Positions 6,027 to 53,520 of a DNA stretch of 64,000 bases are shown piece by piece. The stretch covers positions 3,162,001 through 3,226,000 of the forward strand of contig CM114271.1 in assembly GCA_050084515.1 (NCBI GenBank), given 5' to 3'. Both the position numbers and the translations under genes were made by a program. This DNA is from Blasia pusilla. Its lineage: Eukaryota. The notes beneath the pieces are model-generated. The model saw only the letters and a list, made by a program, of their open reading frames with translations, was not told the origin of the DNA and ran no database searches. Position 1 is the first letter of the stretch; each line of letters begins with the position of its first letter.

Positions 6027-6414
6027 GAGCATAATCAAGGCACACAAGAGAGAAGGAGAGAGATATAATGATGTGATCATGGGAGAATTTTGCAATTCGT
6101 GGTTTGAAATTGCAGGGCATTGCATTCGTTCAAACAAACAAACAGTAACGGAGTGGAGGTGGGAGAGGTCTCAGTGCGCAAACGCAAAGATGTGACACAG
6201 ATGAACACATGGAGGGCTTAAGCGGTCGATTGGCTGGAGGTTGGGTTGTGGAGTGGAAGTTTTAAAGATAGAGTCTGGCGCAACTGCTGCGCGGGAATTC
6301 AACGAGTCCAGCACTTGAGGAGTGCGGATTTTGGCAGTGGGGAGGGAGATGGATGCGGAGCTTCAGTCGTGGTCGCATCCTTAGCGGGGTTTGGATCACA
6401 TTGCACTGGCAGCC

Positions 6415-16807: not shown

Positions 16808-17721
16808 AGCTGCTTATGATTTCAACACGACGCCAGTGCGGGGCCTGTGACCCTATCTGCTCTTCGGTATCAGGATCTCGCAGTGTTGGACATCGTCCGC
16901 ACCTTTCACTGCATCGTGGCGTCTTCGTAGTACAATCCCTGCATTCCGCGTACAGTCCTTAGCGTTCGGTACACAGAGAGCCAAATTATGTTGGCACTCT
17001 AAACTTTCATTAGAGAAACGTCGAAGCTTTGGACGACCAAACCCTCGCGAACGCGAAAACAGTCACCTTTGACAACTCGGACTTCCTTCGAAGGGCCGGA
17101 CTTATGGACATGCTTCACATCTTCGATTTATTTATTTATTTATTTATTCCCTTGCTATGTATGGATGGATTATAGGGGTATTCTAAATCGCTTGGGGTAA
17201 GGAATTAAATTAAAGAAGTATTTAACTAATCCTCGAAAAAATTTAATTGGCCTTTCAGATTAATTCTGGATAATCTTATTGGCTGAAATATTGAATCATC
17301 CTATTGGTTAAAAAGGTGGAGTGTGAAGAGGAGAGGTATTTGAAATTCCAAGGGGCACTCTCCAATAATAATGGGCATGAATTGCATCTTCTAATTTATT
17401 TATTCCCTTGCTATGGATTATAGGGATATTCTCTATTTTTTTTATAGTTAATTGTATGGGGAAAATAGAATCATTGTTGTTTGTAGTTGTGAGTATTCTT
17501 TGGGGCATGAATGAAAGATTATTTATTTCCTCCTTTTGGGAAAAGTTTGCTAGCTTTTTGGTTTCTCCTTTTCGGTTTGTTCTTTTTTCTTTTCTTTTCG
17601 AAAGGTCACCATATGGTTCCCTCCATTTGGAAAATCATACTCCCTACCTCCTAGTTTTCCAAAACAAACAAAAAATCTCCATCCTCTCTTTACCGTTATG
17701 AAAGAAAAAGTTACCCTTCCA

Positions 17722-18043
17722 TCTATATTATAATTTGAGAAGCGTTTATGAAATGACAACTTCAAAATTAAACACTTGTCTTTTTGAATTTAGGATTTTT
17801 ATCACACCTGGCACTTTTCTTACTAACCTGGCGTGTAAATCTTTGCTATAATTTGAGGAGCGCTTTTGACATGGGGATAGCTTCAAAGTTAGACACATGT
17901 CTTTTAGAGTTAGGAATTTATGACACATGGCACTTTCTTTTACTAACTGGGCCCGAATATGTGTATAACTACAGGACCGGGCGAGTATATATGTACATGA
18001 TTGCGCACAATGCATCGCATGGTTCCTCACGGGTCCTAACTAG
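17722..18043 (+). mobile_element. Non-autonomous mini-Helitron (probable)
   Basis: 5' end A|TCTATATTA, 3' end CTAG|T preceded by a degenerate hairpin, and an internal ~120-bp tandem duplication (17728/17847). Confidence 0.6.
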
Positions 18044-18080: not shown

Positions 18081-18217
18081 TGTCGTGCCCATACACATCG
18101 CTACACAACATACATCGTTGGTCACATCCACACCACACAACACCGATCTTCCCCACATACGGGTACATCCACACATGTACAGAAATCAACTCATACATAT
18201 ACTTGGAGATCACACAA
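18081..18217 (-). repeat. Terminal repeat Y, copy 2 (3' end of element, ends ...CACGACA)
   Basis: Aligns with 18702-18820. Confidence 0.9.
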
Positions 18218-18699
18218 CAAAAATCAAGAGTAGAAAAAATGGCACACCCGGCCTAAAACTCCACTCCTCAATCTACATCGGCATATCGAGCCTCGTCCAC
18301 CCTATGCTATCAAGGAATCTAGACGCTAGCACCTAGTCTTAACTCACACACACGAGCAAGAATGGTACTCCAACGGCCCAACGTGAGAAAGATGCCTTGG
18401 AAAAGCCATCTTCCTCCCTCATATAAGTTTGGGAAGAGCCAAAAGGCTCTTCCCCTAAAAATAGCTATCCTCTTGGTAACCTGCGCGCACAGGTTACCAA
18501 GGGTGGATGACCTGCTCAACAAGTCACCCGATAATGAAAGACCTCATTAGGAAAGTTCTTAGACACAATGTTTCTAACACAACAGACCTATCTTCAACCT
18601 CATCCGATACTTCGGGACAAAGTTACACTCAAGACAGTCCGCTAGCTCCTATGCCTTATCCACAATAGATCTCGGCCTTTCGGCTACTCAGATGTGACA
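18218..18699 (-). repeat. Terminal repeat X, copy 2 (starts TGTCACATCT on the minus strand)
   Basis: Aligns end to end with 27081-27564, roughly 85-90% identity by eye over the ~120 bp compared base by base. Confidence 0.92.
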
Positions 18700-18701
18700 A
18701 T

Positions 18702-18820
18702 TATCGTGCGCATACAGATCGCTGGTCACATCCACACCGCACAACACCGATCTTCCCCACACACAAGTAGATCCACATATGTACAGAAATGAACTCATAC
18801 ATATACCTGGAGATCACACA
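18702..18820 (-). repeat. Terminal repeat Y, copy 1, directly after the polypurine tract
   Basis: Aligns with 18081-18217. The minus strand reads AGGGGGATGAT|TGTGTGATCTCC (PPT-like tract 18822-18831). Confidence 0.88.
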
Positions 18821-18898
18821 ATCATCCCCCTAGATGGCAATTGGATCCCCCTAACTCCAGATAGAAAATATCACATCTCCTTGACATGACCTACAACC

Positions 18899-19040
18899 CT
18901 ATACATATCTCGGACATATCCATCGTCCTGTGGGAACTACATCAAGAGGGGGGTCATACATGACATATGCCACCCTCAAGAACAACCAACACATACCAAC
19001 ATGGTGGCTGCACCCCTCGTAGATCCGCACAACATACACC
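18899..19040 (-). pseudogene. PHD finger at the C-terminus of the retrotransposon integrase
   Basis: CMLCGSTRGAATMLVCVGCS*GWHMSCMT / PPLDVVPTGRWICPRY, a C4-H-C3 pattern with one stop, one frameshift and the last Cys changed to Tyr. Confidence 0.88.
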
Positions 19041-19049
19041 TCAAGCTTG

Positions 19050-21980
19050 CGGGTACCACTTCCAAGCTCGGATCCGTTGTCTCGTCCACGTTTGGAAGGT
19101 GACATGGCAAACAGTTGCACACCTAATCCTTCCAAACCATACCATCCCGTCCCTCCAACATGAGGACTCTGGTCGATAATACCTCACGCATCCATAGGAT
19201 CGTGCGCCCTGCAGTGACATCTAGCGTCATGGATACCACCTGTTGTAAAAACACGTAATCTCTAGAATGAAACCTCCTAATCCCTGGACGATAACCTCCT
19301 CGACCAATGGTTGCGTAGCTCAATGTATCCCTATGTTGAGCAATAGCTAAGTTCTCAAAGGCCATGGGCATAACTCTACGAAAAATCTCCGCCCTTGAGA
19401 ACATGCTTGAACCCACACATCTGGATCATCAAGATCTAATACCTCTGCCATGTCACGTCAAGTAGCTGTAGGTAAATCTGGCTCTCTCCCAAAGAGCAAA
19501 AAGTATGGTGAAAATGACATCAAGGATGTCTGCCGATTAAAGCGATAATCCATAGCAAACCATAGCAACTGTAGATCCCACTCCCTCAACTGTCCCCGCT
19601 GCAAGCCATACTTGCGCAATCCTCTCATCACCGTTTGTACTACTCTCTCCACCAACCCATCTGCCTCAGGATGATCTCTGGATGTGGTGCGGTGATCTAT
19701 CAGCGTCTGGTCATACAAGGCCTGAAACTCTCCCCTGAACTCGGTACCCTAGTCAATCAACACCTCCGCCTGTGCACCAAAGTGACTAAGCACACGATCT
19801 AGAAATGCAAAAGTTTTTCCCTTGCTTGCCTTTTCCGGGAGTGCCACCAACTCTATCCACTTGGAGAAATGCTCCACCATGACCAACACGTACTTGTGAT
19901 GATGCTCCGTCACTGTCAAAGGTCCCGCGAAGTCTAAACTCCACCGATAACCTAAACCCATAATCGGTAAAGGATGTAACTACGGAGTGGGAGCATTGAA
20001 GGATGCTCGAACTTTGTCATATATCATACATCTGGCCACAAATTGTTGTACCCGAATATGCATGCCACACCACCAATACTGAACATAGAGTAAGCTGTAA
20101 GTACGCTTTACTCCAACATGCCCCAACTCCTCATGGGCATGTCGCACTACACGTGCTTGCTATGAAGGATGAGGTGCCACTCGTATCCTACCATCTCCCC
20201 ATACCCGCAAAATGTGAGTCCCCTCCCACCTGAACCTCCTAGCTCTCTATAGGATATGATCCCGTTGCCTAGCACTCACAGTGCTCGCTATGATGCCAGT
20301 ACGCAAGAACTCCACCACCTCCACGTCGACATGGATATCTCTACCACGTGTTACCTCCTCACCGACCTATGGATCCAAAGACTCATTATCCGACCCCACC
20401 ACTAGAGCCACCGCCTGCGGTTGACCTGCTATAGTCAACCAACAAAGATAGGCAGATGCATGCCAACCGAGCACCATCTCCCCATCACTCTCTCCGTGCC
20501 ATCGAGCTCCTGTGTCGTCTCTCTAACTCAAACATGGGTTACGACTCAACCCATACGCATCTTGGTTCAACCAACCTGGCATGTGAACCACCTCAAACTC
20601 ATACTCTTGTAGTAATATAGCCTGCCTGGCAAGCTTTCCCGCAAGCTTGTCGGACTCCATCAACCACCTTAACGGCTGATGATCAATGATAAGTGTGAAA
20701 GGGTTGTCGGATAAATAGCACCTGAAATGTGCCACGGCCCACATTGTAGCCAAGCACTCTCCCTCATAGGAGTTGTACTTTGCCTCTTCAATGTTGTTCG
20801 ATCACCTAGCGTAAGCCACAACGAACTCCCTCTCCTCATCATCCTTGTGAGTAAGCACTGCTCCTAGACCCAACATCCTCCAATCCGTATGTAGCTCGAA
20901 TGGGCGACCTCTTACCGGTCTCTGTAAAATGGGTGAGGATGTCAACATGTCCTTGAGCTTCTAAAATGCTTGCTCTTGATCATCTCCCCACAACCAAACT
21001 TGATCAAGTCTCGTCAACAAGATCAAAGACTTCGCGATCGCACTAAACCCCTTGACATACCGTCCATAGAAGTTCACCAGTCCTAGAAACACTCGGACTT
21101 GACTCACATCTGTAGGGCGTGGAATCTTCGAAATAGCCTCCACCTTCAACTGTTGAATACCTAACCCACTCGGGTATATGGTGTGTCCCAAATACTCAAT
21201 CTGCTCCTGAAAGAATCTGCACATGTCTTGATGTAACTTCAATCCATGTAATTGCAATCGCCGGAACACCTCCTCCAGGAGTCGCTCATGCTCCTCAACC
21301 GTGGAACTGAAGATAAGAATATCATGTATGTAACACCATACAAAATCCAAGCCAGCCATAATCCTATCCATCACTCTCTAAAACTTTGCAAGCGCGTTCT
21401 TCAACCCAAATGATAAGAACCGCCAGTGATACAGAGAATCTCTCCCAAATCGATCTATCCCCTATAATATTGTCTTCTCCTTGTCCTCCAACCTGATAGG
21501 AAGTTGATGATATCCAACACGGAGATCTAAAGTACCAAAGATCTTTGCATGCCCTACCGCATCAAAAATCTCCTCATGAGTAGGCATGGCGTATCGATTT
21601 GACCTCGTCTAACGCTTGATATGACAATAATTTCCACACATCCGCCTATCCGTCCAATTGCCATACATATCCTTCTTTGCCGGCATGACTGTGGCAGATG
21701 CATACTCCCCATGTGATAACTCCACAAGTCCTTCCTCCAACAAGTCTTGACTCCTACTATGAATCAAGGCTCGCTTCATCTCACAATACCTGTAGGATCG
21801 ACGAAAGATCGGTGTATCACTAGCCAACTGAATTCGTATGTTGGGACCCTTTAGTGTACCCAAGTCTCTCATACTAAAGGCAAAACAACTGAAATGCCCT
21901 CTCAAAAACCTATGAATCCGTCGTCGCTCTCCTCTTGTCAACTTAAGACCTATCACAAGCTCCCAAGTCTCCATCATGAC
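19050..21980 (-). pseudogene. Gypsy pol remnant: RT, RNase H, integrase
   Basis: ORF pieces 21609-21977, 20961-21374, 20523-20753, 19749-19961, 19458-19718 and 19123-19416 carry canonical motifs, broken by stops. Confidence 0.93.
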
Positions 21981-22284
21981 CTCACTCAGAGAGGACGCAA
22001 CCTCCGGCTTTGGTTGCTATATAGCAACCCTAGCCACCTTCGCAATAGCCACTCCTCTCAGACCTCCTACACCATGCTCCACATCCAAAAAATGAACATG
22101 TGTTGCTCTGACCATCTTCGCACTCTCCACTCAAACGACGTCCCAGGAAGTCCATGGGTGCTTATCTCACCTCGTCCCGCCCCTAGCCAATGCCTCTACA
22201 GACCTTGTAAGCAATGCTCCAACTTGTGGAAGTGACGGCATGGATGACACTCGCATCCGTCTCTACTTAGCCATACCTAGGCTG

Positions 22285-22899
22285 ATTATTCATGTGAGAC
22301 AGTTGAGGTCCATCGCTTGCCCCAACACCTATCTCCGGGATGCCTCACTCATACTTGGCACCGCTGTAGTACCCGTAGCAAACCCCATGGCGCGCTCGCG
22401 CTCATTTTCCATAGGGTCCTCCAATGCTCGAGTCACCTCATCCCAAATCATGTGTGGCCTCTCCGTGACGAAAGGCATGGGATGTTGGGAAGCTCACCAA
22501 CGGAGATAAGGGTGTCCTCAACTCCCCCACCCTATTGGCTATCGCCAACGGTGGTCTATCATCCCACGTCACCACTTGAGATTGGCGCCTTGAGCCCAAA
22601 ATAGCATCCACTGTGAGATGTGGTGCTCTATGAACCAAATGAATGGTGCCAACTCTATCGAGATCTTGCGCCCCTACCAAAGAGATGTCAGCGGGTAGTG
22701 TATCCTCATACCCCTGTACTACAGATACCAACAACAACTCAGAGTACCTTTGGACCAATCTCGCCATGTGACGTAATGATACTTGCCCTAGGGTCTCATC
22801 TCTCTCCACATAAGGGTATTGATGCACCCATATGCCTACCTGCAATATCATAGCTAATCCGGTGCTAATCCCTCCAAAGAGATCTAACACCCTAACACC
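22285..22899 (-). pseudogene. DNMT3/DRM-like C5 cytosine DNA methyltransferase domain inside the retrotransposon polyprotein region
   Basis: Motifs I-III: GVRVLDLFGGISTGLAMILQVGIWVHQYPYVE...DISLVGAQDLDRVGTIHLV. After a frameshift, motifs IX-X: ERERAMGFATGTTAVPSMSEASRR*VLGQAMDLNCLT. Motifs IV-VIII are not found. Confidence 0.85.
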
Positions 22900-23279
22900 C
22901 TCCTCTGGACAGTGCCACACAATAGATGTGTTATCCAGTGGTGTCAACGTCTCCACTCCAAGAGCCCCATTTTCACCTAACTCTCGCTGCTCTAGGATAA
23001 AGGCATGACTCCACGCCTACCTCACAAGGTCGTTGACACTCCTCTGTAGCTCTCGAGTCGTTCGTACCCCACAATGGTGAAGAGGTCTTGCCAACATGGG
23101 AAGAGACACTCGCCATGGCCTGTCTCTCTGTGGGACTATCCGCTACTAGGACATCCACCGCATGTGCGTTCCTCTCCAACAATTCTCCTCTCCAGATAAC
23201 ACTACCTGTGAAAGTTTCCAACGTGGTCACAGACTCGTCTCGTGATCAACCACCTTGTCCCGCAAACTGCACCGGTAAT

Positions 23280-25800
23280 TGATTCATCCGCCTTCCACCT
23301 TACAACCACCCTGGCTCATAAGCAACACTCTCCTCCTAGAAGTCAAGGATGAATCCTAGGGGATATAGCCTTGTACTCCCCACCAACACATCGTACGACT
23401 CAGTCAGTGTCGTAATTGCACGTGTGTGCACCATAGCAGTATCTGTCGCATGCTCTGGTTGGACTCTAACAGCTATCTCTTGTTGAGTCATATACTACAT
23501 TGGTGACATGTCCCCAATCGAGGTCTGTATCTGGAAGGAACAAGGCTCAATGTTGACCTTCGGTAACCCCAACGCTAAACACGTCGCCTTCCCTAACATC
23601 AAGGGATGCGCTCCCGAATCAAGTAGGACGCGTTGCGGGTGATACACTGTCCTTGTCGGACTAACCAAGCGAAATACTCCAACTCGATTATCCAATAACA
23701 TCACGCAAGGTGTCAGCATGGCCCGCTCTATGGCCGGTTGAGCTGGCGTATCTACCAACTTCGCCGCCGCCGCATGCCATGACTCTATGGGGGACGTCCC
23801 GAGCACTTGCTTCGAGGGAAAGTCCACCACCTCCTCAACTACCTTTGAACGAGAGCCAGTCACCTCTCCACGCTCACACAATGTGGCAGCCAACCGGAAC
23901 ACCTCAGCTGGTCTAACTCCCGATGTCACCAACTCTATGGCAGAAAATAATGGAGCCTGGCTCACCATGGTAGCCACCTCCAACACTATGGTCGATAGTG
24001 ACTCCACTCGAGCCGGCATAGGAGCTTCCACTCCAACTCCTTATGACGTCGATGCACCCGCCTGACCTGTAGGCACTACTGGTTGTCGAGACACTATCAA
24101 TGGTGTGTGAAGTGCCTCTGACAACGTGAACGATTGTGGAACCGTGGCTTGCCACCCATCGGTCCCCTCGGTGGGTCAATCTCAACTCCACCTCTCGATG
24201 GCTCAGTGCCTCTCGCAGCACCCTGAGTCATCGCCGCAGCAGCCTCAACATGTGTTGCACTACACATTAGCCCCATACTAGCGATATCCTCACCCGGGTC
24301 ATGGTAAGAGGTAGAAGGTGGAGCCACACTAGCTACTCGCGGCTCTGTGCCTTCCCTGAGCTGCATCATCGTCATGGCAGCAATCCTCTACTCCAACTGA
24401 TCGATGCACGAGTGAAGCGCCGTCTCTAGTGCTCCCACTCCATCTCCTCTGGCACATGGTGGTCCTCTACCACCACGTCGAGGAAACAACTCCTCGACCT
24501 CCTTCAGGAAGCGCCCCTAAGCCTTCGGCCTACCTCTAGACGTGCCTCTCGACGAAGGTCAAAACTTCTATCCCTAATGTGACCATATCTGTGGCAATAG
24601 TCACATTGGTACTATGGTGGAGCCATCCTCTACGGCTCCTGAATAATCGGAGGTGCTCGTGGTCCCCTCCCATGCTGTGGGCAGTCTCTCTGCCTATGGG
24701 CCTCTCCACACGTCCAACAAGACAACATCAGTACCTGCTGGGCAACATATGTAGGTACGGGTCGTTGCCTCATAGGCTCACAGTACCCGCCCTGCTCTTT
24801 AGGCACACAGGCCGGCTCCCATGGTACTGGTGCTCGTTGTGGCACATGTGGGGTCACGGTCGCTCGTGGACCCGTCGACTCTCGAGAAAATCCAGTGGTC
24901 ACTACCTGCTCCTCATTCATGTTGAGCTCAATACGCTCAGACAACTCAAAGATCACCTTCAATGTGGGCTTCGCTATGTGAATCAGCACCGCATCTCAAA
25001 CTCTCCTCCGTAGTTCTTGGTCCAGAGTCCCGTACCAATAGCAATACTGGATTGATTGCGCCTTAGTCACCCCTTAAGTAGCAATGATCAGCCTCCTCAT
25101 GCGCGTGAATGCCTCTCTCAGACTCTCACCCGATCCTCACTGAAAATCTCAGAGACTCTTGACTTTTGTCGTGCACGCCCTGGTAGCTCTTCCCCAATTG
25201 TCGAAAGAACTCCACTGTGGGACTGAAACTGGGTGGCCCTCTACCACCAGAGGTCTTTGCCACATTGCCTTTCTCATTGCCCTCCTCTCCATCTAGTCTC
25301 CGGGCTGATGGTGTGGGTCTCTCTCCTCTCACGATCCCATCATATGCCTCGCGACCACTAGTGGACACATACCCTCGAGCCCAATACATCCTTTAGGCAT
25401 CAATCTCTCATAGATATAGTGATTGAAACTCCATGTAATCATCCATCGGAAGACCCTCTAAGTGCTAGAACAACCCCTTCCATACCATGAAAGGGTTGAA
25501 CCGTGTCGGGGCCTGTATCTCCTAGAAATTGCAACATGTGTCAAACTCTTGGATAAAGTCATCTAAGACAATGGTGTGGATTGCACCCAAAAAATGATGC
25601 ATGCCCCGGTGGCCCATATCGTCCATCTCCTGCCAAATGACATTGCCTCCGTCTGCGATCTCGTCACCACACCTGTTGTCTAGTAATGACGATCCAGCCA
25701 CGGAAAGATGTCGAGCTAGCTCCTCACTCGTAACCCCTCGGTATCTCACTCCACTCCGTGTCACACCACTTCTACTACTCGTACAACCCCGTTCTTTCAA
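23280..25800 (-). pseudogene. Gypsy gag and aspartic protease remnant
   Basis: CX2CX3HX4C knuckle and VLLDSGAHPLML, in fragmented ORFs. Confidence 0.8.
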
Positions 25801-27080
25801 ACGTGGGAAGAACGCCGTGATAAAAACCCTGTCTCACCCGCTCAAGCACTCAGACTCACCAAGAGTCTCCCATACTCCTCACTAGCTCACCGACACTAAT
25901 GGTAATCTGGTGACGACATGCACACTCAACACTCGGGCTCACCATGAGCTTCCCAACTAAATCACCTAAACCACTGACACTCTCGGGTCATACACGTGAT
26001 ACCTACTCGGCAACCGCCCTATATCCACATACATGCTACACATGCATGGAGACTACACTCGTCATCATCGCTACACCCGTCTGGCCCCAAAAACTACCCG
26101 ACACCCAACACTCTCAATCACATAAGACAAGTGCGGGAAAAGGGACTCGAATGAATAACCTTATCACGCCCTCCAACCTATGGCACAGTCAACACTCACT
26201 CCTCCCTGTGATATGACAACCTCCGCACCCCGACACTCCCCTTGAACCAACACGTCGAACCTCCCATCAACATCGGAGTATATGTCTCCATCAGAATCCT
26301 CGCAAATCCCAGCCACGCCTGCAACATATCACGTGCAAAAAAATCTCTCCGCCCTCCCCCAGACGCGCCTCGTAATCTCAACTCAACCCGGGACGAACTC
26401 AACCATGTCGACCCGTTTATCACGTCACTCGTGCCTCTGCCACGTCGCCCTACTACGTCCATCTTGGCCCCTACTACATCAATCCGCCGCCCTGCCCCTA
26501 CCACATCCGCTCCTCCACATTGCCTTACTACGTTCACTCCATTGACCACGTCGAGAAGGTGCCGACTACAGCACTCCCAACCACTTAAGGGGAAAAAAGG
26601 GGGGCAAATGGCTTGGCTTGCGTACCTATGGGCCTTAATGGCCCTTGGGGGGGGAGGGGTACGTGGAAGGGAAGGGTCGTGGCCAAGGGCCACGGCTTCG
26701 CAGCTCGCTGCCTCCGGCTCTGTTACCTGCAACCTAACCCTAGCCCTAGGCGGCTACGCCCTAGCTTGGACGTCCTCACGGCGGCTATGGTGCCCCGACC
26801 TAAGCTTCTCCTTCCGATTTCCGGACACTTACCGCTACTCACTTGCGACCGTCCTTGATACACTCTGCGCTACACCGGAACACTGCACTCTGCTGCTGCC
26901 TCCAGTCAGTTTGCACCCACAAAAACGTGAGAAAATATACATCGCTTCCGCCCACAACCTTCTGAACGAAAAAATGACAACAAAAATACCAACCAGGGTC
27001 TCCACGGACTTCCCACCGAGGCAACTTGCTTGCCTACTTGGTAACAACGAATTCCCACCAGCCCCATGACATCTTTTTCA

Positions 27081-27564
27081 TGTAAAAACAAAGAGTAGTA
27101 AAAATGGCACACCCCGCCTAAAACTCCACTCCTCAATCTACATCCGCACATGGAGCCTCGTCCACCTTGTGCTTTCAAGGAATCCAGACGGTAGCACCTA
27201 GTCCTAACTCACACACACGAGCCATAATGGTACTCCAACGGCCCAACATGAGAAAGATGCCTTGGGAAAGCCATCTTCCTCCCTTATATAGTGTTGGGAA
27301 GAGCCAAAAGGCTTTTCCCCTAAAAGTAGCTATCCTCCTGGTAACCTGCACGCATAGGTTACCAAGAGCGGATCACCTGCTCAAGAAGTCACCCAATTGT
27401 GAAAGACCTCAACAGGACTCTTGTCAGAAACGATGTTCCTGACACAACGGACCTATCCCCAACCTCGTCCAACACCTCGAGACAAAGTTGCACTCGAGAC
27501 AGTCCGCTAGCTCCTATGCCCTATGCACGATAGATCTCGGCCTATCGGCTACTGAGATGTGAAA
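27081..27564 (-). repeat. Terminal repeat X, copy 1 (5' end of element; putative promoter)
   Basis: Aligns with 18218-18699. TATATAA on the minus strand at ~27284-27290 is conserved in the copy at ~53117. Confidence 0.9.
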
Positions 27565-29367: not shown

Positions 29368-29650
29368 TGTCACATCTGGTCTCAATGTATGTGCGTGAGT
29401 TTGTTTGGTTTATGGATGGATCGACCCGTGTGTTATGAAGATCGGTGTTGTGTGGTGTGTAGATGTGATCAATGATGTGGGTTGTATAGCAATGTGTATG
29501 CGTACTACAACGTTGTAGGGTCTCGATGTATATGCATGAGTTTGTTTGGTTTATGGATGGATCAATCCGTGTGTTGGGAAGATCGGTGTTGTGTGGTGAG
29601 TAGATGTGACCAACGATGTGGTTTGTGGAGCGATGTGTATGCGCATCACA
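29368..29650 (+). mobile_element. 283-bp deletion derivative of the same retrotransposon family
   Basis: Begins TGTCACATCT (X start), contains two tandem Y-like units, ends ...GCATCACA, and is flanked by a perfect 4-bp TSD CCTT (29364-29367 / 29651-29654). Confidence 0.85.
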
Positions 29651-30096
29651 CCTTGTTTTTATCCATGATCTTTTTATATTCCTAATATTTTTAAGACAAT
29701 TATGATTTTTGATTTTTTTAAGTTTAAGAACATTAGTGACCCAATAAATTTTTATTGGAAATGCCCTCTTTGAGCTCTATTGAATCCTCGTTAAAAGTTT
29801 TTTTTGGTCTCATATTATCCATAATGCCTTTTGCTTTGCCTCTAAATATATATTTTCTTGTTTATATGTCTGATATCGTTCTTCCCCTTTGCCCTAACAT
29901 TTTCCTTGTATATCTTTTTGTCAACATCATTCATCCATCTATCCTTGTTCTCTTGCTAAGGAGATAGGAAAAAAGTGTACGCATATATATGTACCACTGT
30001 CATGCGCATACTCATCAATGTATAACATACATCTTTGTCACCGAAGACACACATGATCCCATGCTAACTCATGGCATCCAAACATCCTAAATCCAT

Positions 30097-32029: not shown

Positions 32030-35000
32030 GGCTACACTCCTCGTAGATCCACACAACATACACCTCAAGCTCACAAGTACCACTGCCAAGCTTGGACCCA
32101 TCATCTCATCTACGTTCAAAAGATGGCGTGGCACACAATAATGCACATAATCCTTCCAAACCATACCATCCCATCACTCCAACTTTGAGCGATAACACCT
32201 CAAAATCATGCATCCCGTAGTGACATCTAGCTTCGTGGGTACCACATATTGTAAGTGCACATAATCTCCAAGATGGAACCTCCTTATCTTTGGACAATAA
32301 CCTCCTCCACGAATGATTATGCACCTCGATGTATCCCTATGCTAAGCAATAGCTAAGTTCTCAAATGCCATGGGGATAACTTTACAAGATATCTTTGCCC
32401 TCTAAGAACATGCTTGTCCCCATACATCCGGATCATCAAGTTCCAACACCCTTGCGATGTCACAGCCAATAATTGTAGGTGAGTATATCTCTCTCCCATA
32501 GAGAAAAAAGTACAGTGAAAATGACCTTAAGGACGCCTGCCAATTGAAGGGATATCCCATACCCAACCATAGCAAGTGTAGCTTCCACTCCCTCAAATGT
32601 CCCCATTGCAAGTCATACTTGCGTAACCCTCTCTTTATTGAATATAGTACTCTCTCCGCCAATCCATCTGCCTGCAGATAATCTATGGACGTGGTGCGAT
32701 TATTTATCAATGTCTGATCACACAAAGTCGAAAACTCTCCCTTGAACTCCATACCCTGGTCAATCAACATCTTTCTCGGTCTACCAAAATGAATAAGTAC
32801 TTGATCTAAAGACTCACAAGTTGCTCCCTCACTCACCTTGTCCGATAGCACCACCAACTTTATCCACTTGGATAAATGCTGCACCATAACCAACACACAC
32901 TTATGATGACGGATCGTCAATGGCGAAGGTTTCGCAAAGTCTAGACTCCACTGATAATCTAATCCCATAATCAACAAAGGATGCAACTGTGGAGTATGAG
33001 CATTTAAAGATGCTCATACTCAACGAGACACCATACACCTGGCTACAAAGTATTAAACCTCAATATTCATGCCATGCCACCAATAACGAACTTGGAATAA
33101 GCTATAAGTACACTTTATTCCAATGCATCCCAATTTTTTGTAGGCACGTTGCACAACACGTACTCGTAGGGAAGGACGAGATACTATTTTCATCCTCCCA
33201 TTCCCCACACCCGTAAAATGTATGTCCCCTTCCACATGAGGCTCTTGGCTCTCCATGGGATTTCATCCCATTCCCTAACACTCATAATGCTTGCTATGAC
33301 GCCATTGCGTAGGAACCGTAGAACCCCCACATTATCATGGATATATGTGATTTTACTATATATTGTTGTTATATAGTAAAATCACCCGCTAAGTAAACTC
33401 CTTTATCATTAAGTTTAAGAAAGAGTTTTATGCGTATTAAGTAAATTAGCCTAGGAAAATGAAATTCTCATGTTTAAACTTCTTTTATGTGACTCATTTG
33501 CGCCGGCCCAACTTCAAGAAAATAGATAATAATTAAAAGATGGGATTAGAAAAGTAAAGTAGTGGGATTGGTCTTTTAATAAAACAAAAGTAAAAATAGT
33601 GTTGGTTGGTCGCTAGGGTTGGTGGGGTAGTTTGGAAGATATGAAGGAAGTAAAAGAGGATATTTTGGAAGAGATAAGAGGTAATCTACTTGTGTCAAAA
33701 TGTGATTGGCTAAGCCTTGAGAGGAAGCCATGTGGCACAAGATAAGATTTTATACTCTTGTGAATCCCTTGTGAGTATATAAAGAGCATGGACCTTCAAG
33801 GGTTCATCACTTTCTACTTCACATATTAAGTCTCTTATGTCATTCTTGAATGTATGGCTTTGGGATTGTTTGCTCTTCCAATGAGAGTGGATTACCCCTT
33901 TTGGGAAAGTAACTTGACCTTGCTCTATTATTCGAGAGTTTTCTAGAGTGTGGTATGTGTGGAGATGAGAGTCCTGTCATCTTAGATGAGTTTAGTCATG
34001 CTAGAAATAGGTGATGGTTTGGCTTGTTATTTTTCGAATGAGAGTGGATTATCCCTCTTGGGAGAGCAACTCCGCCAAATCCTATTTTAGAGGAGAGTAG
34101 AGGATGCTTGTCAAGTATGGATAGGGATGGAGCACGAGTTGTGCCGGATTTTCCTTTCTTTAACCTGTACCACATCAAGATTCTCTTTGTAGATAGGCAC
34201 TAGTTCACTCGCTATCTAGTTTATCACTTTGGGGATGCGTTCATGAACCAAGTCATACAATCTCCAACTCCGGTGATTCTTCCTATAGTCACGTACAGAA
34301 GGACATGGAATTGCACTTTGTATGTCCTTATATAGCTATCCATGGACGTCAATAGGCATGTTTGAGTAGGATTTAACACTAGTTGTGTTATTTTCCTTGT
34401 GTACAAACGTAAAGTAGTTTACAGGGATTTCATAGTTAGAATTTTTGGGATTCCATGTTATGAAGAAGTGATAATCTCGGCACTACCATTCGTGATTCCT
34501 GTCGTGAGAGAATGGAGAGTTTACACAATAATTTTATACTGAAAAAGGAGAAATTATTATAGAGTTTGACTTGCATCAACCACGTCTGCTTCAGCTAGAA
34601 GGTCCGCCCTTACTCGAAGAAAGGACTTTCGACACGACATCGTTGCCTCCTCACTAACCTCTAAATCTGAAGACTCATTGTCTAAATCCACCACTATAGT
34701 CGCTATATGTTGTTGATCTAACATAGTCAACCAACAAAGGAAGGTTGATGCATGCTTACTGAGCACCTTCTTCTCATCACTCTCTTCGTGCCATCAAGCT
34801 CTTGTCTTGTCTCTATTACCCGAGCAAGGGTTACAACTCAACCCATCTGCATCCACATTCACCCAACCCAGCCTATGAACCACCTCAAACTTGTACTCGC
34901 ATAGTAGTAGAGCCCACTTGGCAAGCTTCGATGCAAGCTTGTTAAACTCCATCAACCACCTCAATGATGGATGATTAGTGATAAGTGTGAAAGGATTGCC

Positions 35001-37072
35001 ATATAGATAGCATAAAAATGTGCCACGACCCACATTGTAGCCAAGAACACTTCCTCATAGGACCTATAATTTTCCCCTACAATGTTGTTCAATTGGCTTG
35101 CATAAGCCACAACGAACTTCCTCTTCTTATCATCTCTATGAGTGAGCGTCGCGCCTAGACTAAACATGCTCCAATTTGTAATTAGAAAGAACTACCCCTC
35201 ATAAATCTTTGTAGGATGTCATTCTATCGTTGAGCTCCTGAAATATTGGCTTCTAATCATCTCCACAAAGCCATATATGATCAATTCTCTTAAGGTCAAA
35301 GATTTCACAATCATACTAAAACCCTTAATACACCATTCACAGAAGTTTGCAAGTCCTATAAATGCTCAAACTCAACTTGCATCTAAAGGGCATGGAATAT
35401 GTACAATAGCCTCTACCTTTGTTTGTAGAATATCTAACCAAACTGGATATATGGTGTGCCCTAAATACTTGATTTTCCCATGGAAGAATCAGCATTTGCT
35501 TCGGTGTAACTTTTGTCCATGTAGTTGCAATCGCCGGAACACCTTCTCCAAGTGTAACTCGTGCTCCATAATCGTGGAATTGAAAATAAGAATTTTATCA
35601 TTGTAATACTGTACAAAATTCAAGCAAGGTAGAATCGTGTCCACAACTCTTTGGAAGTACGCAAGGGCGTTCTTCGACCCAAATAGTACGAACCGCCGTT
35701 GATACAAATAATATCTCCCAAAAAGTCTATCGCCCAAAATATTGTCTTCTTATTGTCCTCCACCCTCATAGGAAGCTGATGGCAGTCATCATGGAGATCT
35801 AAAGTAATAAAGGTTTTGGTATGCACAACCGCATCGAAGATTTTCTCAGAATTGGACATGGCGTATCCATTTGACCTTGTCTATCGATTGACAAGGAAAT
35901 AATCTCCACACATCCACCTATTCATCCAATTGTCATACACATCCTTCTTCATCGGCATGACCATGGCATATTCATACTCTCCATGCTATAACTCCACAAG
36001 TCCTACCTCCCACAAGTCTTGACTCCTACTATGAATCAATGCTCCCTTCATGTTGGACTTCCTATAGGATTGACGTAAGATTAGCGTATCACTAGCCAAC
36101 TCTGTCCGTATATCAAGATCCTTCAAAGTACCTAAGTCCCTCATACTCAAGGTGAAACAACCCACATACCTTTTGAAGAATCTTTATATCCGCCGTCTTT
36201 CTTCTCCTATCAACTCAAGACCTATCACATACTTCCAATTCTCCATTGGACCTCACTTAGAGGAGAAGAGACCTATGAATTTGGTTATTATGTAGCAACC
36301 CTAGCCACCTCCGCTACAACCACCCCACTCTCACCTCCTATATCATGCTCTAAATCTGAAAAATGAGCATGTGCTTCTTTGGCCGCCTCTGCACTCTCTA
36401 CTTACACAACATCCTTGGAAGTCCATGTGTGCCTATCTCTCCTCATCTCATCCCCCGCCACTGCCTCTACATACCATGTAAGAAATTTGCCAACTTATGG
36501 ATACGACAATATGGATGACATTCACATCTGATGTTGCTCAACCAAACCTAGGTTGACTATCCATGTGAGACATGTTAGGTCCATCTTTCTTGTGTAAAAT
36601 CGAAGTAAAAACAACTCACACGTCCAACTCCACACATGAATCCACACGTGATATCGAGCCACATCCACCCTTTGCCATGAGGGAGCCCATACTCTAAAAG
36701 TCAAGCTACTACCACACATTAAGCAAGAGAATTGCTCCAAAATCTCTATATGAGAAAGATGGCTCACGAAAGCCCTCTTTCCCTCTTTCCCTCTTTGATA
36801 CCCTTGGGAAGAGGAAAAAGCTCTTCCCCCAAAAAGATCCCTCTAAATAGTAACCTACATGTACAAGTTACTCCGTGACCCTTGACTTGGTCAACATGTT
36901 ACCGAGCCGAAAAAATAACGAAAGAGAGACTTTAAAAAAAATGATGATCCTGACACACCAAACCCGTCACCAACCTCATCCGACACCTCAAGAAAAAATT
37001 ACGCCCAATCAGCGAGTTAACCCTCTAGCTGACACGATAGAACTCTACATGTCAACTAACTAAGATGTGACA
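32030..37072 (-). mobile_element. Second, older and internally deleted copy of the Gypsy-MTase-PHD family
   Basis: Homologous integrase (WSLDFAKP..ADGLAER), PHD start (LRCMLCGSTR), RNase H, RT, MTase tail MDLTCLTWIV (~36550-36584) and repeat X (~36590-37072, ending AGATGTGACA). Interrupted at ~33346-34630. Confidence 0.88.
33346..34630. mobile_element. Unrelated LTR-like insertion inside the second Gypsy copy
   Basis: Homology to the first copy stops at ~33345 and resumes at ~34630. The insert is AT-rich with TATATAAA (~33776) and an internal duplication (33860/34018). Termini are not resolved. Confidence 0.55.
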
Positions 37073-40000
37073 ATTTGTTTTTCATAGTGTTCTTATTGAA
37101 ATATATAAAAGATCATACATTCTTAACTATGTCTTTGAGAGCATCTCACATATTATCCTAGGATCGTATGTGAGACGCTCTAATAAATATAGTTACGACT
37201 TGGATGACTTCAACCATATTCCTATGGCATAAGATCTACACATCCAAGAAATAATCTATTTTATGATATATGGGTATAGAGAGTGCAAGATGCTACATGA
37301 GATATACACATGTAAAAATAGTTTTTTGAGGAAAAACAAGGAAAGAAATGGATCATGTAGAGGAGTTTGACACATGCATCTCTATGGATCATTTATCTAT
37401 GGATAAAGTTAGTTGTCTTGATCCCAACTAAATCCCATGCGTTATACCAATTCTGAGAATACGAGTTTGATGTGTTATGCTTGCGTACATTGAAGCTCTG
37501 TTTCACTTAAGGTCAATCTTACCAAGGAATTCAATGCCCTTGCAAAAAAAAACCTCAATCATAAATAACAAAGTGTGGAAGAACGAAGACGCTACAAAGC
37601 TAAGAGAGGAGAAAGAATGTAGGTCCTTGTGTAGTAAACTCATAGTCAAAAGAAAAAGCATGCTTATTCCCACTAAACTAATAGTGATATCAAAACTTTT
37701 GAGTTGTTCGTTTATTTTGTTAATTCTTATTTCATGATCGAGCATCGAGAAAATAATCATGCATTTACTCCCTTGAACTCGAGTGTTGTGTGTCACACTA
37801 GGTAGTGTTTAAAAAGGTCATACTCTCAATATTGATCTACACGCAAACACACTTGTATTAGCCATATTTTGGATCGTTTTGTTATAAGAAAAAAAAATGT
37901 GAAGAAAATACAAAATATCTATTTCTCTTGAAAATACAAAGTGGCCTTTCCGTTCGCGACAAAGCTTTGATGGAACCTGAACATGCAAAAACTCAATATA
38001 CGCTACAATTGCACTTTACTACTTATTTCACCACTCGGGAAACTAGGATATTCGACCTTATTTCTTTTGATTCTCTAAAATATTTTCTAGTTATCATAAT
38101 TTAATGGAATAAATCCTATTTTTAGAAAATTTTAATGAAAATTTATTTATACATTTTATTATTGGATTATACCCATTTTTTCTCATCAACAAATTCCCCT
38201 TGTTTTTTTCCTCTAAAAATCATATTTATATCACTATATTATATGTTTCCAACGTAGATATAAATTAGTTTAAATTCATCATCTGAGATGTAAAATATAG
38301 TCACCGTATGAACCTATACAATTTTATTAACATTTTGTGCTCTGTATCATAATACATTCAATAAAAGGTCCTAACGTTTTGGAAGAGATGTTCTACAAAT
38401 AGACTTAAGAAATTGTTTGAGTATATTTGTATGAATTTTTTTGCAAGTTTTTTTTGGTATTGTAGAGTACGTTTTCTACTTGCCCCTCGAGATTGTTACT
38501 CTACTCAATCATGTTTACTTCCATATTTATTTTGAAGTCCCCTTAAATATTTTCTAAAAAATATTTTTTAAATTTATCAAAAAAATTAACCTTGTAAAGA
38601 ATGAGAATATTCTTCATGAATAATCATCCCCTCTTTTTAGAAGAAGAAGAAGAAGTCCCTAGCATCTCTACCTAAGAAAAGGATGGAGGCGCTTATTAAG
38701 GAAGACAACATACTTAATTAGATGGTTAAAAAAAGGATACACCATGTATAAAAGAGGTTAGTTTAATTTTCTCGCATAAGAAAAGAAAAGAAAAGAAAAA
38801 ACTATATTATGAGCAAAGGATATTATTTCTCATTGGTAAGAACCTCTAATATGTGACATTTATCATTTTAAGAAGTAATGACATCTATTTTCAACATAAG
38901 AATGTAATTACATAATTAAGTGTAATTAAGCTAATGGGGTCTTAAGAAGAATATATTTCAAAATTTAGATGTATCGGCTTGATAAGATTCGTATAGAACA
39001 ATTATTTTTAGAGGTTATTTTAAAATTTTGCAATTATTAGTTCGGTAGTTTTATAAAGGCCTCAAAGCTTTTCTCCTGTAGGCTCTAGTAAGCACTAATG
39101 TTTTACTATTGCCTTACTATGATAATTTGTTTAAGACTAAACAAGAATAAATTGATGTATTCAATATGTGATACATGCCTTCTATCACTTTAAAAATTTG
39201 AAGAAAAAATAGAGATATATTTTATTATTTGTGTCATTATTATTGGAGAGTGCGGCTTTAAATTTCAAACATCTTCTCTCTTTATACCTAGCCCTTTCAG
39301 CCAATTGGATAGCTCGCCCTCTCAGCCAACATGATAGTTCGGTTTCTTGGCCAGTAAGATTATTAAGAATCGATTTAAGAAGTGAATCAAAATTTTGGAA
39401 GATTCACTAAGTCTTTCATCGAGGATTATTTTATGTTGTTGATTTAAATAACCTGTGCATTGAATGAGCATCTTTTAGGACCTTAGATGATAAGAAAATG
39501 TTGAAGTTTTATATCGCGAAACTTACAATATCTTACATGATGACACATTATTTAATATTTGATTCTAAGTAAAAGAAGGGAAGAGAGAAGAAGACAATTT
39601 ATTAACCAAAGAAAATTTTAAATCTTTTTTAGCCAAAGGGTATCACTTTCCATGAGATTCAGGAGTTGATTTCAAAATAGAGAAAGGGATAAAATTTCAA
39701 GAAGCAAGGGCTTCATAAGAATCTTCTTGAAAATTCATTTTTTTATATATTAAAATCATGAGAGATAATGTTTAATTTTCAATAAGGTAGGGCAGAGAGA
39801 AAGAAGCACACTTGAACCAGAGACCTTCAAACGTGAAAATTATCAAAATATTTTATGACAAGAGATCAGATAAGAAAGTAATCAACGAGTTTAATTTTCT
39901 ATAAGAGAGGAGAAGTGAAAAATGGGAAATTCTCAATAGGAGAGGGTTTAATAAAGATTTTTGGAAGAGTCATCTATTTGTTTAGATGAAGGGAAGAAAG

Positions 40001-52844: not shown

Positions 52845-53520
52845 TGTCCCATCTTAATAATCGATAGGTAGAGATCTATCACGGCAACAACATAGATAGC
52901 CAATGGACTCTCGTGAGAACTATTTCGTCCCGAGGTGTCGGATGAGGTTGAGGATAGGTCCGTTGTATCAAGAATGTCATTTCTGACAACTATCCTATTG
53001 TGGTCTTTATAGTCGGTGACTTGTTGAGTTGGTAACCGCCCCTTGTAACCTGTGCACGCAAGATACAAGGAGGATTGCTATTTTTAAAGGAAAATCTTTT
53101 TGGCTCTTCGCAAACTTATATAACGGAGGAAGATGACTTTTTTCTCGTGTTGGGCCATTGGAGCACCTCTCTTGCTCGTGTGTGAGGTAGGATCAGGCTG
53201 GTAGCGTCTGGATTCCCTCATAGCAAAGGGTGGACAAGGCTCGATATGCCGATGTAGATTCAGGAGTTTTAGGCCGAGTGTGTCATTTTTATTCTGATTT
53301 TTATATGATAAAGAAGCGAGGGGCAGGGGGAATTCGTTGGTTGCAGATAAGGCAAGCGAGTTGCCTCGGTGGAGATCCCCTGGAGACGTGTGTGTGACGG
53401 GTGTTTTATCATTTTTTGTACGGAAGACCATACGCGGAAGTAGTGTTTGTTTTCCGGAGAATTCGTTGGCATAGCTGGACGGGAGAGAACAATAAAGTGT
53501 AGCGGCAAGAACGCTTGACG
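52845..53520 (+). mobile_element. 5' remnant (repeat X plus leader) of the same Gypsy family, opposite orientation
   Basis: Begins TGTCCCATCT and aligns with the reverse complement of ~27564-26860, including GAATTCGTTG..AGGCAAGC.AGTTGCCTCGGTGG. Confidence 0.85.

Follow-up and report, generated by a model that had tools for sequence, protein, structure and literature searches.

The 64-kb stretch of Blasia pusilla DNA analysed here as a whole (the window) carries what is very probably a fossil methyltransferase domain, once integral to a Ty3/Gypsy retrotransposon, and not a host gene. The window copy of this methyltransferase is dead, a non-functional relic. The element that holds it is of the Gypsy-DNMT3 kind, published in 2018 for a green alga and found here in a bryophyte lineage.

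The relic lies inside a decayed element (element 1, Table 1) whose parts run in the order gag-PR-DNMT-RT-RH-INT-PHD (PR, protease; RT, reverse transcriptase; RH, RNase H; INT, integrase), as read from Pfam and from tblastn with related proteins. In tblastn, a Marchantia protein (P0189) is collinear with the window over PR, DNMT and RT-RH. The original prediction, made from the DNA letters, had placed a DNMT3-type domain between protease and RT on the pol strand; the relic does sit between these two remnants and shares their minus strand. About 31 stop codons and several frameshifts are spread over the whole element. The gag remnant, with its 10-11 stops, is divided among two or more frames, one of which (24633-24995) still encodes a CCHC zinc knuckle; RT holds 7-8 stops (tblastn with P0045 and P0189) and an active-site box that reads YIHD, not YxDD. 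The protease piece had no match in a direct Pfam scan, and the protease of relatives matched Asp_protease_2 or gag-asp_proteas weakly, under the cut-off. Also under the cut-off was the match of the integrase to rve_3, at E 0.043. In P0045, the relative that served to trace the end of the coding region, Pfam places the PHD finger at residues 1497-1541.

Table 1. Features of element 1 and of the other copies of its family in the window.
Feature	Position	Strand	Evidence
Element 1, entire decayed copy of a Ty3/Gypsy-type retrotransposon (9,484 bp)	18081..27564	-	repeat pairs; termini and flanks; tblastn domain order with relatives
Candidate 4-bp target-site duplication CCAT flanking element 1	27568-27565 and 18080-18077	-	termini and flanks
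Repeat A1, 5' terminal repeat	27084..27564	-	self-comparison with A2
Gag remnant	24540..25788	-	tblastn with P0179 and P0176, 39-46% identity; ORF text
Aspartic protease remnant (DSG motif)	23498..24040	-	ORF text; tblastn with P0004, P0012, P0099, P0089, P0048
DNMT3-like C5-methyltransferase relic	22287..22950	-	phmmer, hhalign, tblastn, alignment to relatives
DNMT motifs I-III	~22633-22899	-	alignment to relatives
DNMT 110-residue in-frame deletion junction	~22633-22638	-	alignment to relatives, hhalign
DNMT target-recognition part	22465-22632	-	alignment to relatives
DNMT frameshift	~22457-22465	-	alignment/translation
DNMT motifs IX-X, with TAG 22331-22329 and TGA 22292-22290	22293-22457	-	next-frame translation, hhalign
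Reverse transcriptase remnant	20964..22016	-	Pfam RVT_1 E 6.6e-11 on 20964-21377; ORF text; tblastn with P0045 and P0189
RNase H remnant	20526..20801	-	Pfam RT_RNaseH E 4.9e-17
Integrase remnant (zinc-binding part and DDE core), 5 stops	19422..20342	-	tblastn with P0045, 42% identity
Integrase C-terminal extension and decayed PHD finger, 3 stops	18922..19395	-	tblastn, P0045 residues 1377-1535, 40% identity
Repeat B1, internal, immediately upstream of A2	18702..18821	-	90% identical to B2
Repeat A2	18219..18699	-	self-comparison with A1
Repeat B2, 3' terminal repeat	18081..18217	-	comparison with B1
Second copy of the family, 5'-deleted	32030..37075	-	76% identity to 19006-22314; translation
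Third, truncated copy: A-like repeat and ~200 bases of leader	52845..53502	+	72-76% identity to A1/A2 and 26883-27083

The methyltransferase relic is spread over two frames of the minus strand; its C5-methyltransferase motifs are numbered in the usual way. The motif I-III stretch begins at 22899, within a 192-aa stop-free frame (22441-23016), and the motif IX-X stretch stands in the next frame (22332-22493), where the original prediction had located it, and continues beyond the TAG just ahead of motif X; the three peptide strings quoted there are all present on this strand. The identification as a DNMT holds as well, but the same reading had overlooked a gap of 110 residues. This deletion falls between the motif IV lead-in and the target-recognition region, and it has removed motif IV (PCQ), which holds the catalytic Cys, as well as motif VI (ENV) and motif VIII. 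Motif I, the SAM-binding loop (FxGxG), is kept as FGGISTGL in the window frame, aligned to relatives and to DNMT3A, and motifs IX and X are both present in a C-terminal part that is broken by a frameshift and two stops. Given the deletion, the frameshift, the stops and the mutated RT box, the window copy is unable to do what intact members would. A search of the 64-kb window found no further DNMT copies.

Judged by homology to member proteins, the relic is a C5 cytosine methyltransferase. Searched by phmmer against 1.84 billion proteins, the 192-aa frame gave 222 matches at E<=1e-3, 36 of them at E<=1e-10, and the best reached E 1.4e-35 with 61% identity. The window also matched P0154, a protein that bears PF00145, at E 6.3e-49 and 57% identity, and hhalign joined both of its pieces to a 22-sequence family alignment (N piece, 99.9% probability, E 1.9e-35; C piece, 98.5%, E 2.1e-15). 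A chance Rossmann-fold resemblance is ruled out by the best phmmer match together with the hhalign probability of the N piece. A search against PF00145, proposed as a check on the earlier reading, gave a divided answer: in a direct Pfam scan, all three window pieces failed to match even at E<=1, and relatives passed the curated cut-off in 7 of 9 cases in one set and in 7 of 7 in another. The absence of motifs IV-VIII from the window copy accounts for the missing direct match. Thus, we assign membership through the relatives, which have the PF00145 match that the window pieces lack.

Ranking against solved structures supports a placement of the domain family as DNMT3-like. Our tree covers retrotransposon-borne domains only, so the term DNMT3-type rests on this ranking and not on a phylogeny with host DNMT3, DRM, DNMT1, CMT and bacterial enzymes. 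Of 58 distinct sequences that a profile of 22 intact relatives matched in the PDB, the 29 at the top were DNMT3A/B/C (E 4.6e-25 to 1e-18). DRM came next (E 1.7e-13 to 1.2e-11), M.HhaI (~6e-10), DNMT2 (~1e-4) and HaeIII were also matched, and no chain named DNMT1 or DNMT5 appeared at E<=1. The AlphaFold model of one relative (pLDDT 86.1) pointed in the same direction: the Foldseek matches listed (from within ranks 1-49) were all DNMT3A/B/C, the best at E 1.6e-18, with TM scores of 0.79-0.84 to crystallised DNMT3 catalytic-domain chains. The window frame alone matched the PDB weakly, and 29 of its 34 weak matches were DNMT3A/B/C, aligned on motif I at marginal E values (0.024 to 0.8); its top match (E 0.0066) went to a response regulator, which is unrelated.

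Mammalian DNMT3A/3B/3C (for example 2qrv, 6f57 and 8te1) are thus the best profile and fold matches of the family and are collinear with it over motifs I-X, although identity to the modelled relative is just 20-23% over ~325-335 aligned columns. Unlike them, the family domain has no PWWP or ADD, is embedded in a retrotransposon polyprotein and, in the profile alignment, carries a motif X of the form G-Q-A, not the DNMT3A form. Because the alignment of the family profile with DNMT3A falls into three stretches that are collinear, the motif order is non-permuted; the window pieces stand in this order too (alignment, hhalign). This bears out the earlier claim of an order from I to X unlike that of DRM, and we rejected a DRM-type permuted enzyme on the same PDB comparison. 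Plant DRM (4onj, 7l4c), which is DNMT3-related and the second-best group in the profile search, is circularly permuted: the motif I-IV part of the family profile matches DRM chains in their C-terminal portion, whereas the family runs straight from I to X.

On the evidence of protein and metagenome matches, the lineage of this element is widespread in mosses and liverworts. All 17 metagenome loci with a length of 12 kb or more read GAG-PR-DNMT-RT-RH(-INT-PHD), and PR-DNMT-RT recurs in proteins annotated for Marchantia, Calypogeia and Sphagnum; the relatives include 17 Marchantia polymorpha gene models. Among 65 loci covering at least 330 residues of the domain, 61 keep PCQ or ECQ and 50 keep ENV. 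Stops interrupt 60 of 65 related copies, so much of the family has decayed, and 5 are stop-free in one frame. There are signs of purifying selection on the DNMT in the deep branches of the family: among 29 related copies, the 28 pairs with dS>=1 have a median dN/dS of 0.17, and all 401 pairs one of 0.55.

A different domain arrangement is found in chlorophytes: 33 of 52 phmmer-matched proteins of at least 450 aa read RT-RH-DNMT-INT-PHD and 4 more show DNMT-INT. Elements of this kind are represented by proteins of Chlamydomonas eustigma, Haematococcus lacustris, Monoraphidium neglectum and Scenedesmus sp. PABB004 and by many metagenome contigs. The DNMT of these Gypsy-PHD elements is homologous to that of the window family over its full length, target-recognition block included, and so are their RT, RNase H, integrase and C-terminal PHD finger to those of the window lineage. 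What differs is the site of the DNMT, which lies at the RNase H/integrase junction in the chlorophyte elements and between PR and RT in the window and its bryophyte relatives. The two types of DNMT also separate with an SH-aLRT of 98 in a quick tree that has several long branches. Our literature search found no paper naming the chlorophyte DNMT-bearing Gypsy-PHD elements, nor any description of the bryophyte distribution and the alternative domain position. A PHD-bearing LTR element, REM1, is known from Chlamydomonas.

Element 1 is bounded by split direct repeats, laid out as A1-coding-B1-A2-B2. A1 and A2 are 87.5% identical over 481 aligned bases (K2P 0.138; blastn, 87.8% over 484), and B2 has a 17-base insertion relative to B1. 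With the A repeats 12.5% diverged, the insertion would be old, dating back roughly several million years. In blastn self-comparison of 19 related loci, the A..B-A-B layout was complete in four (L047, L065, L068, L079), an A pair alone was seen in three (L006, L039, L056), a B pair alone in one (L076) and neither pair in 11; a separate repeat-family search of 5 related loci found no families in L022, L024 and L035. The same A1-coding-B1-A2-B2 layout, in which the B1-A2 joint mimics a circle junction, belongs to the PAT-like and Ngaro elements of DIRS order. These use a tyrosine recombinase, whereas the integrase of element 1 is of the DDE type and includes a zinc-binding domain, and the element is flanked by the candidate 4-bp target-site duplication.

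Two more copies of the family lie in the window. The second lacks gag, PR and almost the entire DNMT: an A-like repeat (36596-37075, 65% match) abuts the last DNMT codons (~36585), and RT-RH-INT follow. The third is oriented opposite to element 1. As to the surroundings, a neighbouring gene belongs to the MutL/PMS-type mismatch-repair family (protein atlas). A look-up of sequencing runs with 20000-24500 returned 5 DNA runs, none of which shared more than 0.14 of the words; the matches listed included no RNA run.

The closest published counterpart is KnitGypsy-Dnmt3 of Klebsormidium nitens, in which a DNMT3-related domain lies within the Gypsy Pol polyprotein (de Mendoza et al. 2018, Nat Commun 9:1341, PMC5890265). 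The domain is non-permuted and intronless inside Gypsy Pol, as in the window family, and signs of purifying selection are described across its copies (PMC5890265); among the relatives of the window copy dN/dS is low for deep pairs but not overall, and in the window copy itself the catalytic residues are deleted. Its repeats have the DIRS retrotransposon layout (A-coding-B-A-B), which the window element shares, and its domains are Gypsy-typical (PMC5890265, Fig. 4c legend). The likeness lies in these features; the PR-DNMT-RT order is stated here for the window and its relatives. The two also differ: the host is another plant, the window copy is dead, and the closest relatives that carry a species name come from the bryophytes Marchantia, Calypogeia and Sphagnum, not from Klebsormidium. 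No Klebsormidium protein was among the named matches of our searches, which did include a protein of the charophyte Closterium (P0075).

Could the relic instead be a pseudogene fragment of a host DNMT3 or DRM, that became trapped in an unrelated retrotransposon, or came to lie beside one, through rearrangement or nested insertion? Bryophytes have host DNMT3 genes, as stated in PMC6453930, and the domain, itself broken, stands in a region rich in repeats, where the family has at least three copies. Yet a host fragment would hardly recur in the order gag-PR-DNMT-RT in 17 of 17 long related loci and in the annotated proteins of three bryophyte genera, and on this ground we rejected a host pseudogene. 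Moreover, the C-terminal piece of the DNMT and the start of RT share one frame in the window, and the motif order is not the permuted one of DRM. Together with the collinearity of P0189, the recurrence of the arrangement argues that the domain is part of the element and not a chance neighbour, and we regard a trapped host fragment as extremely unlikely.

Slightly less improbable, though still very unlikely, is a bacterial or viral C5-methyltransferase that was gained by horizontal transfer and resembles DNMT3 superficially. Pfam gives only the general PF00145 family, M.HhaI and HaeIII are matched too, and one family member (P0203) is annotated in a bacterial metagenome-assembled genome. However, the profile E value to DNMT3A is 15 orders better than that to M.HhaI, the match to DNMT3A extends over motifs I, IV-VIII and IX-X as against ~50 residues of M.HhaI, and the best fold matches are all DNMT3 among those listed. 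P0203 itself falls inside the eukaryotic retrotransposon clade of the tree, so its bacterial label more likely reflects contamination. Least probable of all, to the point of being barely credible, is that the remnant still functions, for example as a SAM- or DNA-binding polypeptide made from the 192-aa frame. This frame is indeed the longest stop-free one of the element and its SAM-binding loop is intact, but it lacks an upstream intact ORF or start context, the element around it is riddled with stops and frameshifts, and the fold core (motifs IV-VIII) is gone.

Thus, we retain the reading of a retrotransposon-borne methyltransferase. In intact members of the family, the DNMT3-like domain would be translated within the polyprotein and, released by the protease or still fused, would use S-adenosyl-methionine for de novo cytosine methylation. 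Its likely substrate would be the cDNA of the element itself or a fresh insertion, and the PHD finger of the integrase may read histone tails and so steer integration. Activity, substrate and biological role are in this sense a proposal. One Gypsy-DNMT3 enzyme has been tested in yeast, where activity was undetected, a result that the authors called inconclusive (PMC5890265).

Taking all relatives together, we tentatively suggest, as a possibility that we would not favour at present, that the window element represents an undescribed bryophyte-wide (land-plant) branch of an ancient green-lineage Gypsy-PHD split-repeat family with its own DNMT3-like enzyme, a module relocated between RNase H-integrase in chlorophytes and protease-RT in bryophytes. 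If this is true, the association of DNMT3 with retrotransposons would be an ancient one that extends widely through Viridiplantae, rather than the outcome of a capture in Klebsormidium alone. The second arrangement in green algae bears in any case on how modules move within polyproteins. A de novo methyltransferase encoded by a retrotransposon is a paradox, known from few lineages, because cytosine methylation is normally directed at such elements. The window adds no working enzyme to this picture, but it leads to many moss and liverwort relatives. DNMT gene counts in bryophyte genomes need care, since the transposon-borne copies carry the annotation 'DNA (cytosine-5)-methyltransferase' or pass for ordinary hypothetical proteins. 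Marchantia is a genetically tractable model plant, and near-intact copies in annotated genomes such as that of Marchantia polymorpha could make the role of a transposon-encoded de novo methyltransferase genetically testable there. These relatives may thus help in choosing a system in which to test the function of transposon-borne DNMT3.

The original prediction saw a DNMT3-type cytosine methyltransferase (DNMT) domain between protease and reverse transcriptase (RT); the stretch belongs to element 1, a decayed Ty3/Gypsy copy. We recovered the three peptide strings behind it on the minus strand, two in a single frame, with the motif I string beginning at 22899, and the third in the next frame. 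Since remnants of gag, protease, RT, RNase H, integrase and a PHD finger flank them on the same strand, the domain indeed sits within a Ty3/Gypsy-type element, between its protease and RT, and the observation is confirmed.

Features of element 1 in window positions (A and B are its split direct repeats)
Feature	Position	Strand	Remark
A1 repeat	27564-27084	minus	then coding region
gag remnant	24540-25788	minus	CCHC knuckle
Aspartic protease	23498-24040	minus	DSG motif
DNMT frame, motifs I-III	22441-23016	minus	192 aa, stop-free; first two strings
DNMT third string, motifs IX-X	22332-22493	minus	next frame; continues beyond TAG at 22331-22329
RT		minus	Pfam RVT_1, E 6.6e-11
RNase H		minus	Pfam RT_RNaseH, E 4.9e-17
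Integrase		minus
PHD finger		minus	decayed
B1 repeat	18821-18702	minus
A2 repeat	18699-18219	minus
B2 repeat	18217-18081	minus

None of the three window pieces matched PF00145 in a direct Pfam scan, even at E<=1. Against PDB sequences the window frame alone gave marginal matches throughout, headed by an unrelated response-regulator protein (E 0.0066); DNMT3A/B/C made up 29 of the 34 sequences listed, at E 0.024 to 0.8 and all on motif I. For the window pieces by themselves the comparison is negative with PF00145 and marginal with DNMT3 structures; it is positive through their relatives. A phmmer search of 1.84 billion representatives returned 222 matches at E<=1e-3; 36 of these reach E<=1e-10 and 3 reach E<=1e-30, the top one having E 1.4e-35 and 61% identity to the window frame. 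The related protein P0154, from a search among longer proteins (E 6.3e-49, 57% identity), carries PF00145, and this domain passes its curated cut-off in two sets of relatives, in 7 of 9 and 7 of 7 respectively. When two window pieces were compared by hhalign with an alignment of 22 intact relatives, they matched with probabilities of 99.9% (E 1.9e-35) and 98.5% (E 2.1e-15). It is these relatives, not the window pieces alone, that provide the decisive evidence of a match beyond chance.

Which methyltransferases does the family resemble most? Run against all PDB sequences, the profile of the 22-sequence alignment retrieved 58 distinct sequences at E<=1. The top 29 are DNMT3A, 3B or 3C (E 4.6e-25 to 1e-18), followed by six DRM chains (E 1.7e-13 to 1.2e-11) and, lower still, M.HhaI (~6e-10), HaeIII and DNMT2-type enzymes (~1e-4). 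DNMT3A aligns collinearly in three blocks (motif I, IV-VIII and IX-X), bearing out the predicted non-permuted I-to-X order; in DRM, by contrast, the C-terminal part of the chain aligns with the N-terminal part of the profile, as for a permuted enzyme. P0154 was also modelled with AlphaFold from the same alignment (mean pLDDT 86.1, pTM 0.88); among the Foldseek matches listed within ranks 1-49 the model retrieved DNMT3A/B/C chains throughout (best E 1.6e-18), with TM-scores of 0.79-0.84 relative to the crystallised catalytic-domain chains and 20-23% identity to the model. Profile and model comparisons show the family to be DNMT3-like in sequence and in predicted fold, and the DNMT3-type interpretation is supported, the term denoting a similarity ranking against solved structures and not a phylogenetic placement.

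The window copy itself cannot be active. Aligned with intact relatives, motif I (FGGISTGL) and the region downstream up to the motif IV lead-in are intact; the next 110 residues are missing, and with them the Pro-Cys motif, which reads PCQ in relatives, as well as ENV and the Arg-rich motif VIII. The deletion junction, at ~22633-22638, preserves the frame and is flanked by two similar Leu-Val dipeptides. The domain also carries a one-base frameshift at ~22457-22465, a TAG at 22331 in place of Gln and a TGA at 22292 in place of Trp, both residues being kept in 6/6 relatives compared. Over the whole element, 31 stop positions fall within alignments to relatives: 8 are TAG at majority-Gln sites, 4 are TGA at majority-Arg sites and 3 are stops at majority-Trp sites, a distribution that C-to-T and G-to-A transitions would be expected to produce. 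The active-site box of RT is YIHD.

Over 481 bases, A1 and A2 share 87.5% identity and differ by 36 transitions and 24 transversions (K2P 0.138). At the common plant-LTR rate of ~1.3e-8 substitutions per site per year, which may not be that of the host, the insertion would be roughly 5 million years old. B1 and B2 are 90% identical. The terminal bases of the element are T(T/G)TCAC at its start and CGACA at its end. CCAT on both flanks is a candidate 4-bp target-site duplication, a 4-base match alone being weak. The full A-coding-B-A-B layout recurs in 4 of 19 related loci examined (L047, L065, L068 and L079), with the A pair alone in 3, the B pair alone in 1 and nothing relevant in 11, several of these loci ending at contig edges. 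The Fig. 4c legend of PMC5890265 gives the same layout for KnitGypsy-Dnmt3, the DNMT3-bearing Gypsy element of Klebsormidium nitens.

Other traces of the family lie nearby. A second copy (32030-37075, minus) has an A-like repeat adjoining the last DNMT codons, then RT, RNase H and integrase; gag, protease and nearly all of DNMT are missing, as if by a single internal deletion. A third, in opposite orientation (52845-53502, plus), consists of an A-like repeat and ~200 bases of leader with no coding part after. Two tandem B-like units (29377-29656; period ~141, 87% alike) are inverted relative to element 1 and lie outside recognisable elements. A dispersed repeat of ~110 bases, 69-74% alike, occurs at 17259-17372, 31862-31975, 39235-39335 and 53556-53670, close to several family copies and outside the A and B repeats. 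The window also holds plus-strand exons of a MutL/PMS-type DNA mismatch-repair gene (6385-10175), whose 399-aa exon (8257-9453) falls in PF01119 clusters of the protein atlas (score 0.93). Plus-strand open frames at 45203-47993 resemble exons of a putative kinesin-type motor gene, as judged from an SSRSH-type motif.

Named close DNMT relatives among 64 matches comprise 17 Marchantia polymorpha gene models, 2 from Calypogeia fissa and 3 from Sphagnum; Sphagnum jensenii and S. troendelagicum proteins, P0004 (Calypogeia) and P0007 (Marchantia) are further close relatives, and the charophyte Closterium has one. In metagenome contigs 599 stretches matched, 489 of them encoding relatives, and 80 loci were retained. 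All 17 metagenome loci of at least 12 kb have the order GAG-PR-DNMT-RT-RH, most also with integrase and PHD, and Marchantia P0189 is collinear with the window from protease through DNMT into RT-RNase H. The phmmer match set contains 52 proteins of 450 aa or more: RT and/or RNase H lies upstream of DNMT in 33, DNMT is followed by integrase in 4 more, protease lies upstream in 4, DNMT stands alone in 9, and 2 are odd. The named carriers of RT-RH-DNMT-INT-PHD are the chlorophytes Scenedesmus sp. PABB004, Monoraphidium neglectum, Haematococcus lacustris and Chlamydomonas eustigma, where DNMT lies between RNase H and integrase, whereas in element 1 it lies between protease and RT. The window integrase and PHD region is 40-42% identical to this type, and the backbones of the two arrangements are therefore related. 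A quick tree built from 42 DNMT domains splits the two types (SH-aLRT 98) and places the window domain in a crown clade (support 99) beside Marchantia, Calypogeia and Sphagnum clades, nested in none, which makes a further bryophyte its probable host.

Chlorophyte Gypsy proteins of the RT-RH-DNMT-INT-PHD type include P0091, P0283, P0301/P0302, P0334 and many metagenome proteins. Precomputed Pfam lists give a few chlorophyte-type proteins extra domains: Tudor in P0034, chromo in P0324 and P0329, and G-patch in P0270, P0049, P0291 and P0306. P0203, a member of this eukaryotic retrotransposon DNMT family, is annotated 'DNA cytosine methyltransferase' under a metagenome-assembled genome labelled bacterial (Candidatus Obscuribacterales); it probably represents eukaryotic DNA that was assigned to that bin in error. 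Beside its main element, L047 has more divergent DNMT-like fragments (4124-4663, minus; 17576-17746, plus), which suggests that related elements inserted into one another or in clusters.

The DNMT domain forms an integral part of the polyprotein. Of 65 related loci spanning at least 330 of 368 DNMT residues, 5 keep a stop-free single frame and 60 have stops; PCQ/ECQ is kept in 61 and ENV in 50. For 29 single-segment copies, median pairwise dN/dS is 0.55 over all 401 pairs and 0.17 over the 28 pairs with dS>=1. Most relatives thus keep the catalytic motifs, with purifying selection on deep branches, which fits a domain that selection maintained as long as lineages were active and individual insertions that then decayed neutrally. 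We envision that in live elements the domain would act as a de novo cytosine methyltransferase, with the element's own cDNA or fresh insertion as the most plausible substrate, a role that de Mendoza et al. propose for retrotransposon DNMTs (PMC5890265). The integrase-linked PHD finger may read histone tails and so steer integration, a general suggestion for PHD-bearing retrotransposons in PMC6673714. In the yeast assay reported in PMC5890265, only dinoflagellate DIRS enzymes methylated CG; the Klebsormidium Gypsy enzyme had no activity, a result its authors call inconclusive.

Gypsy-DNMT3 elements are published for Klebsormidium (PMC5890265), and later work treats them as a streptophyte feature (PMC12344493; bioRxiv 10.64898/2026.05.21.726589). 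We found no paper describing them in bryophytes or liverworts, in a search without most subscription journals and supplements that is weak evidence of absence, and the chlorophyte DNMT-bearing type is unnamed in the literature found on PHD-bearing Chlamydomonas elements. In Marchantia polymorpha at least 17 'hypothetical' or 'DNA (cytosine-5)-methyltransferase' models (e.g. P0186, P0189, P0191, P0226) are retrotransposon pieces; such models could inflate DNMT gene counts. Element 1 belongs to a known kind of element, of which it is a dead copy, and comes from a new host group; its significance rests not on this copy but on the bryophyte-wide distribution of the family and the two alternative positions of its methyltransferase module.
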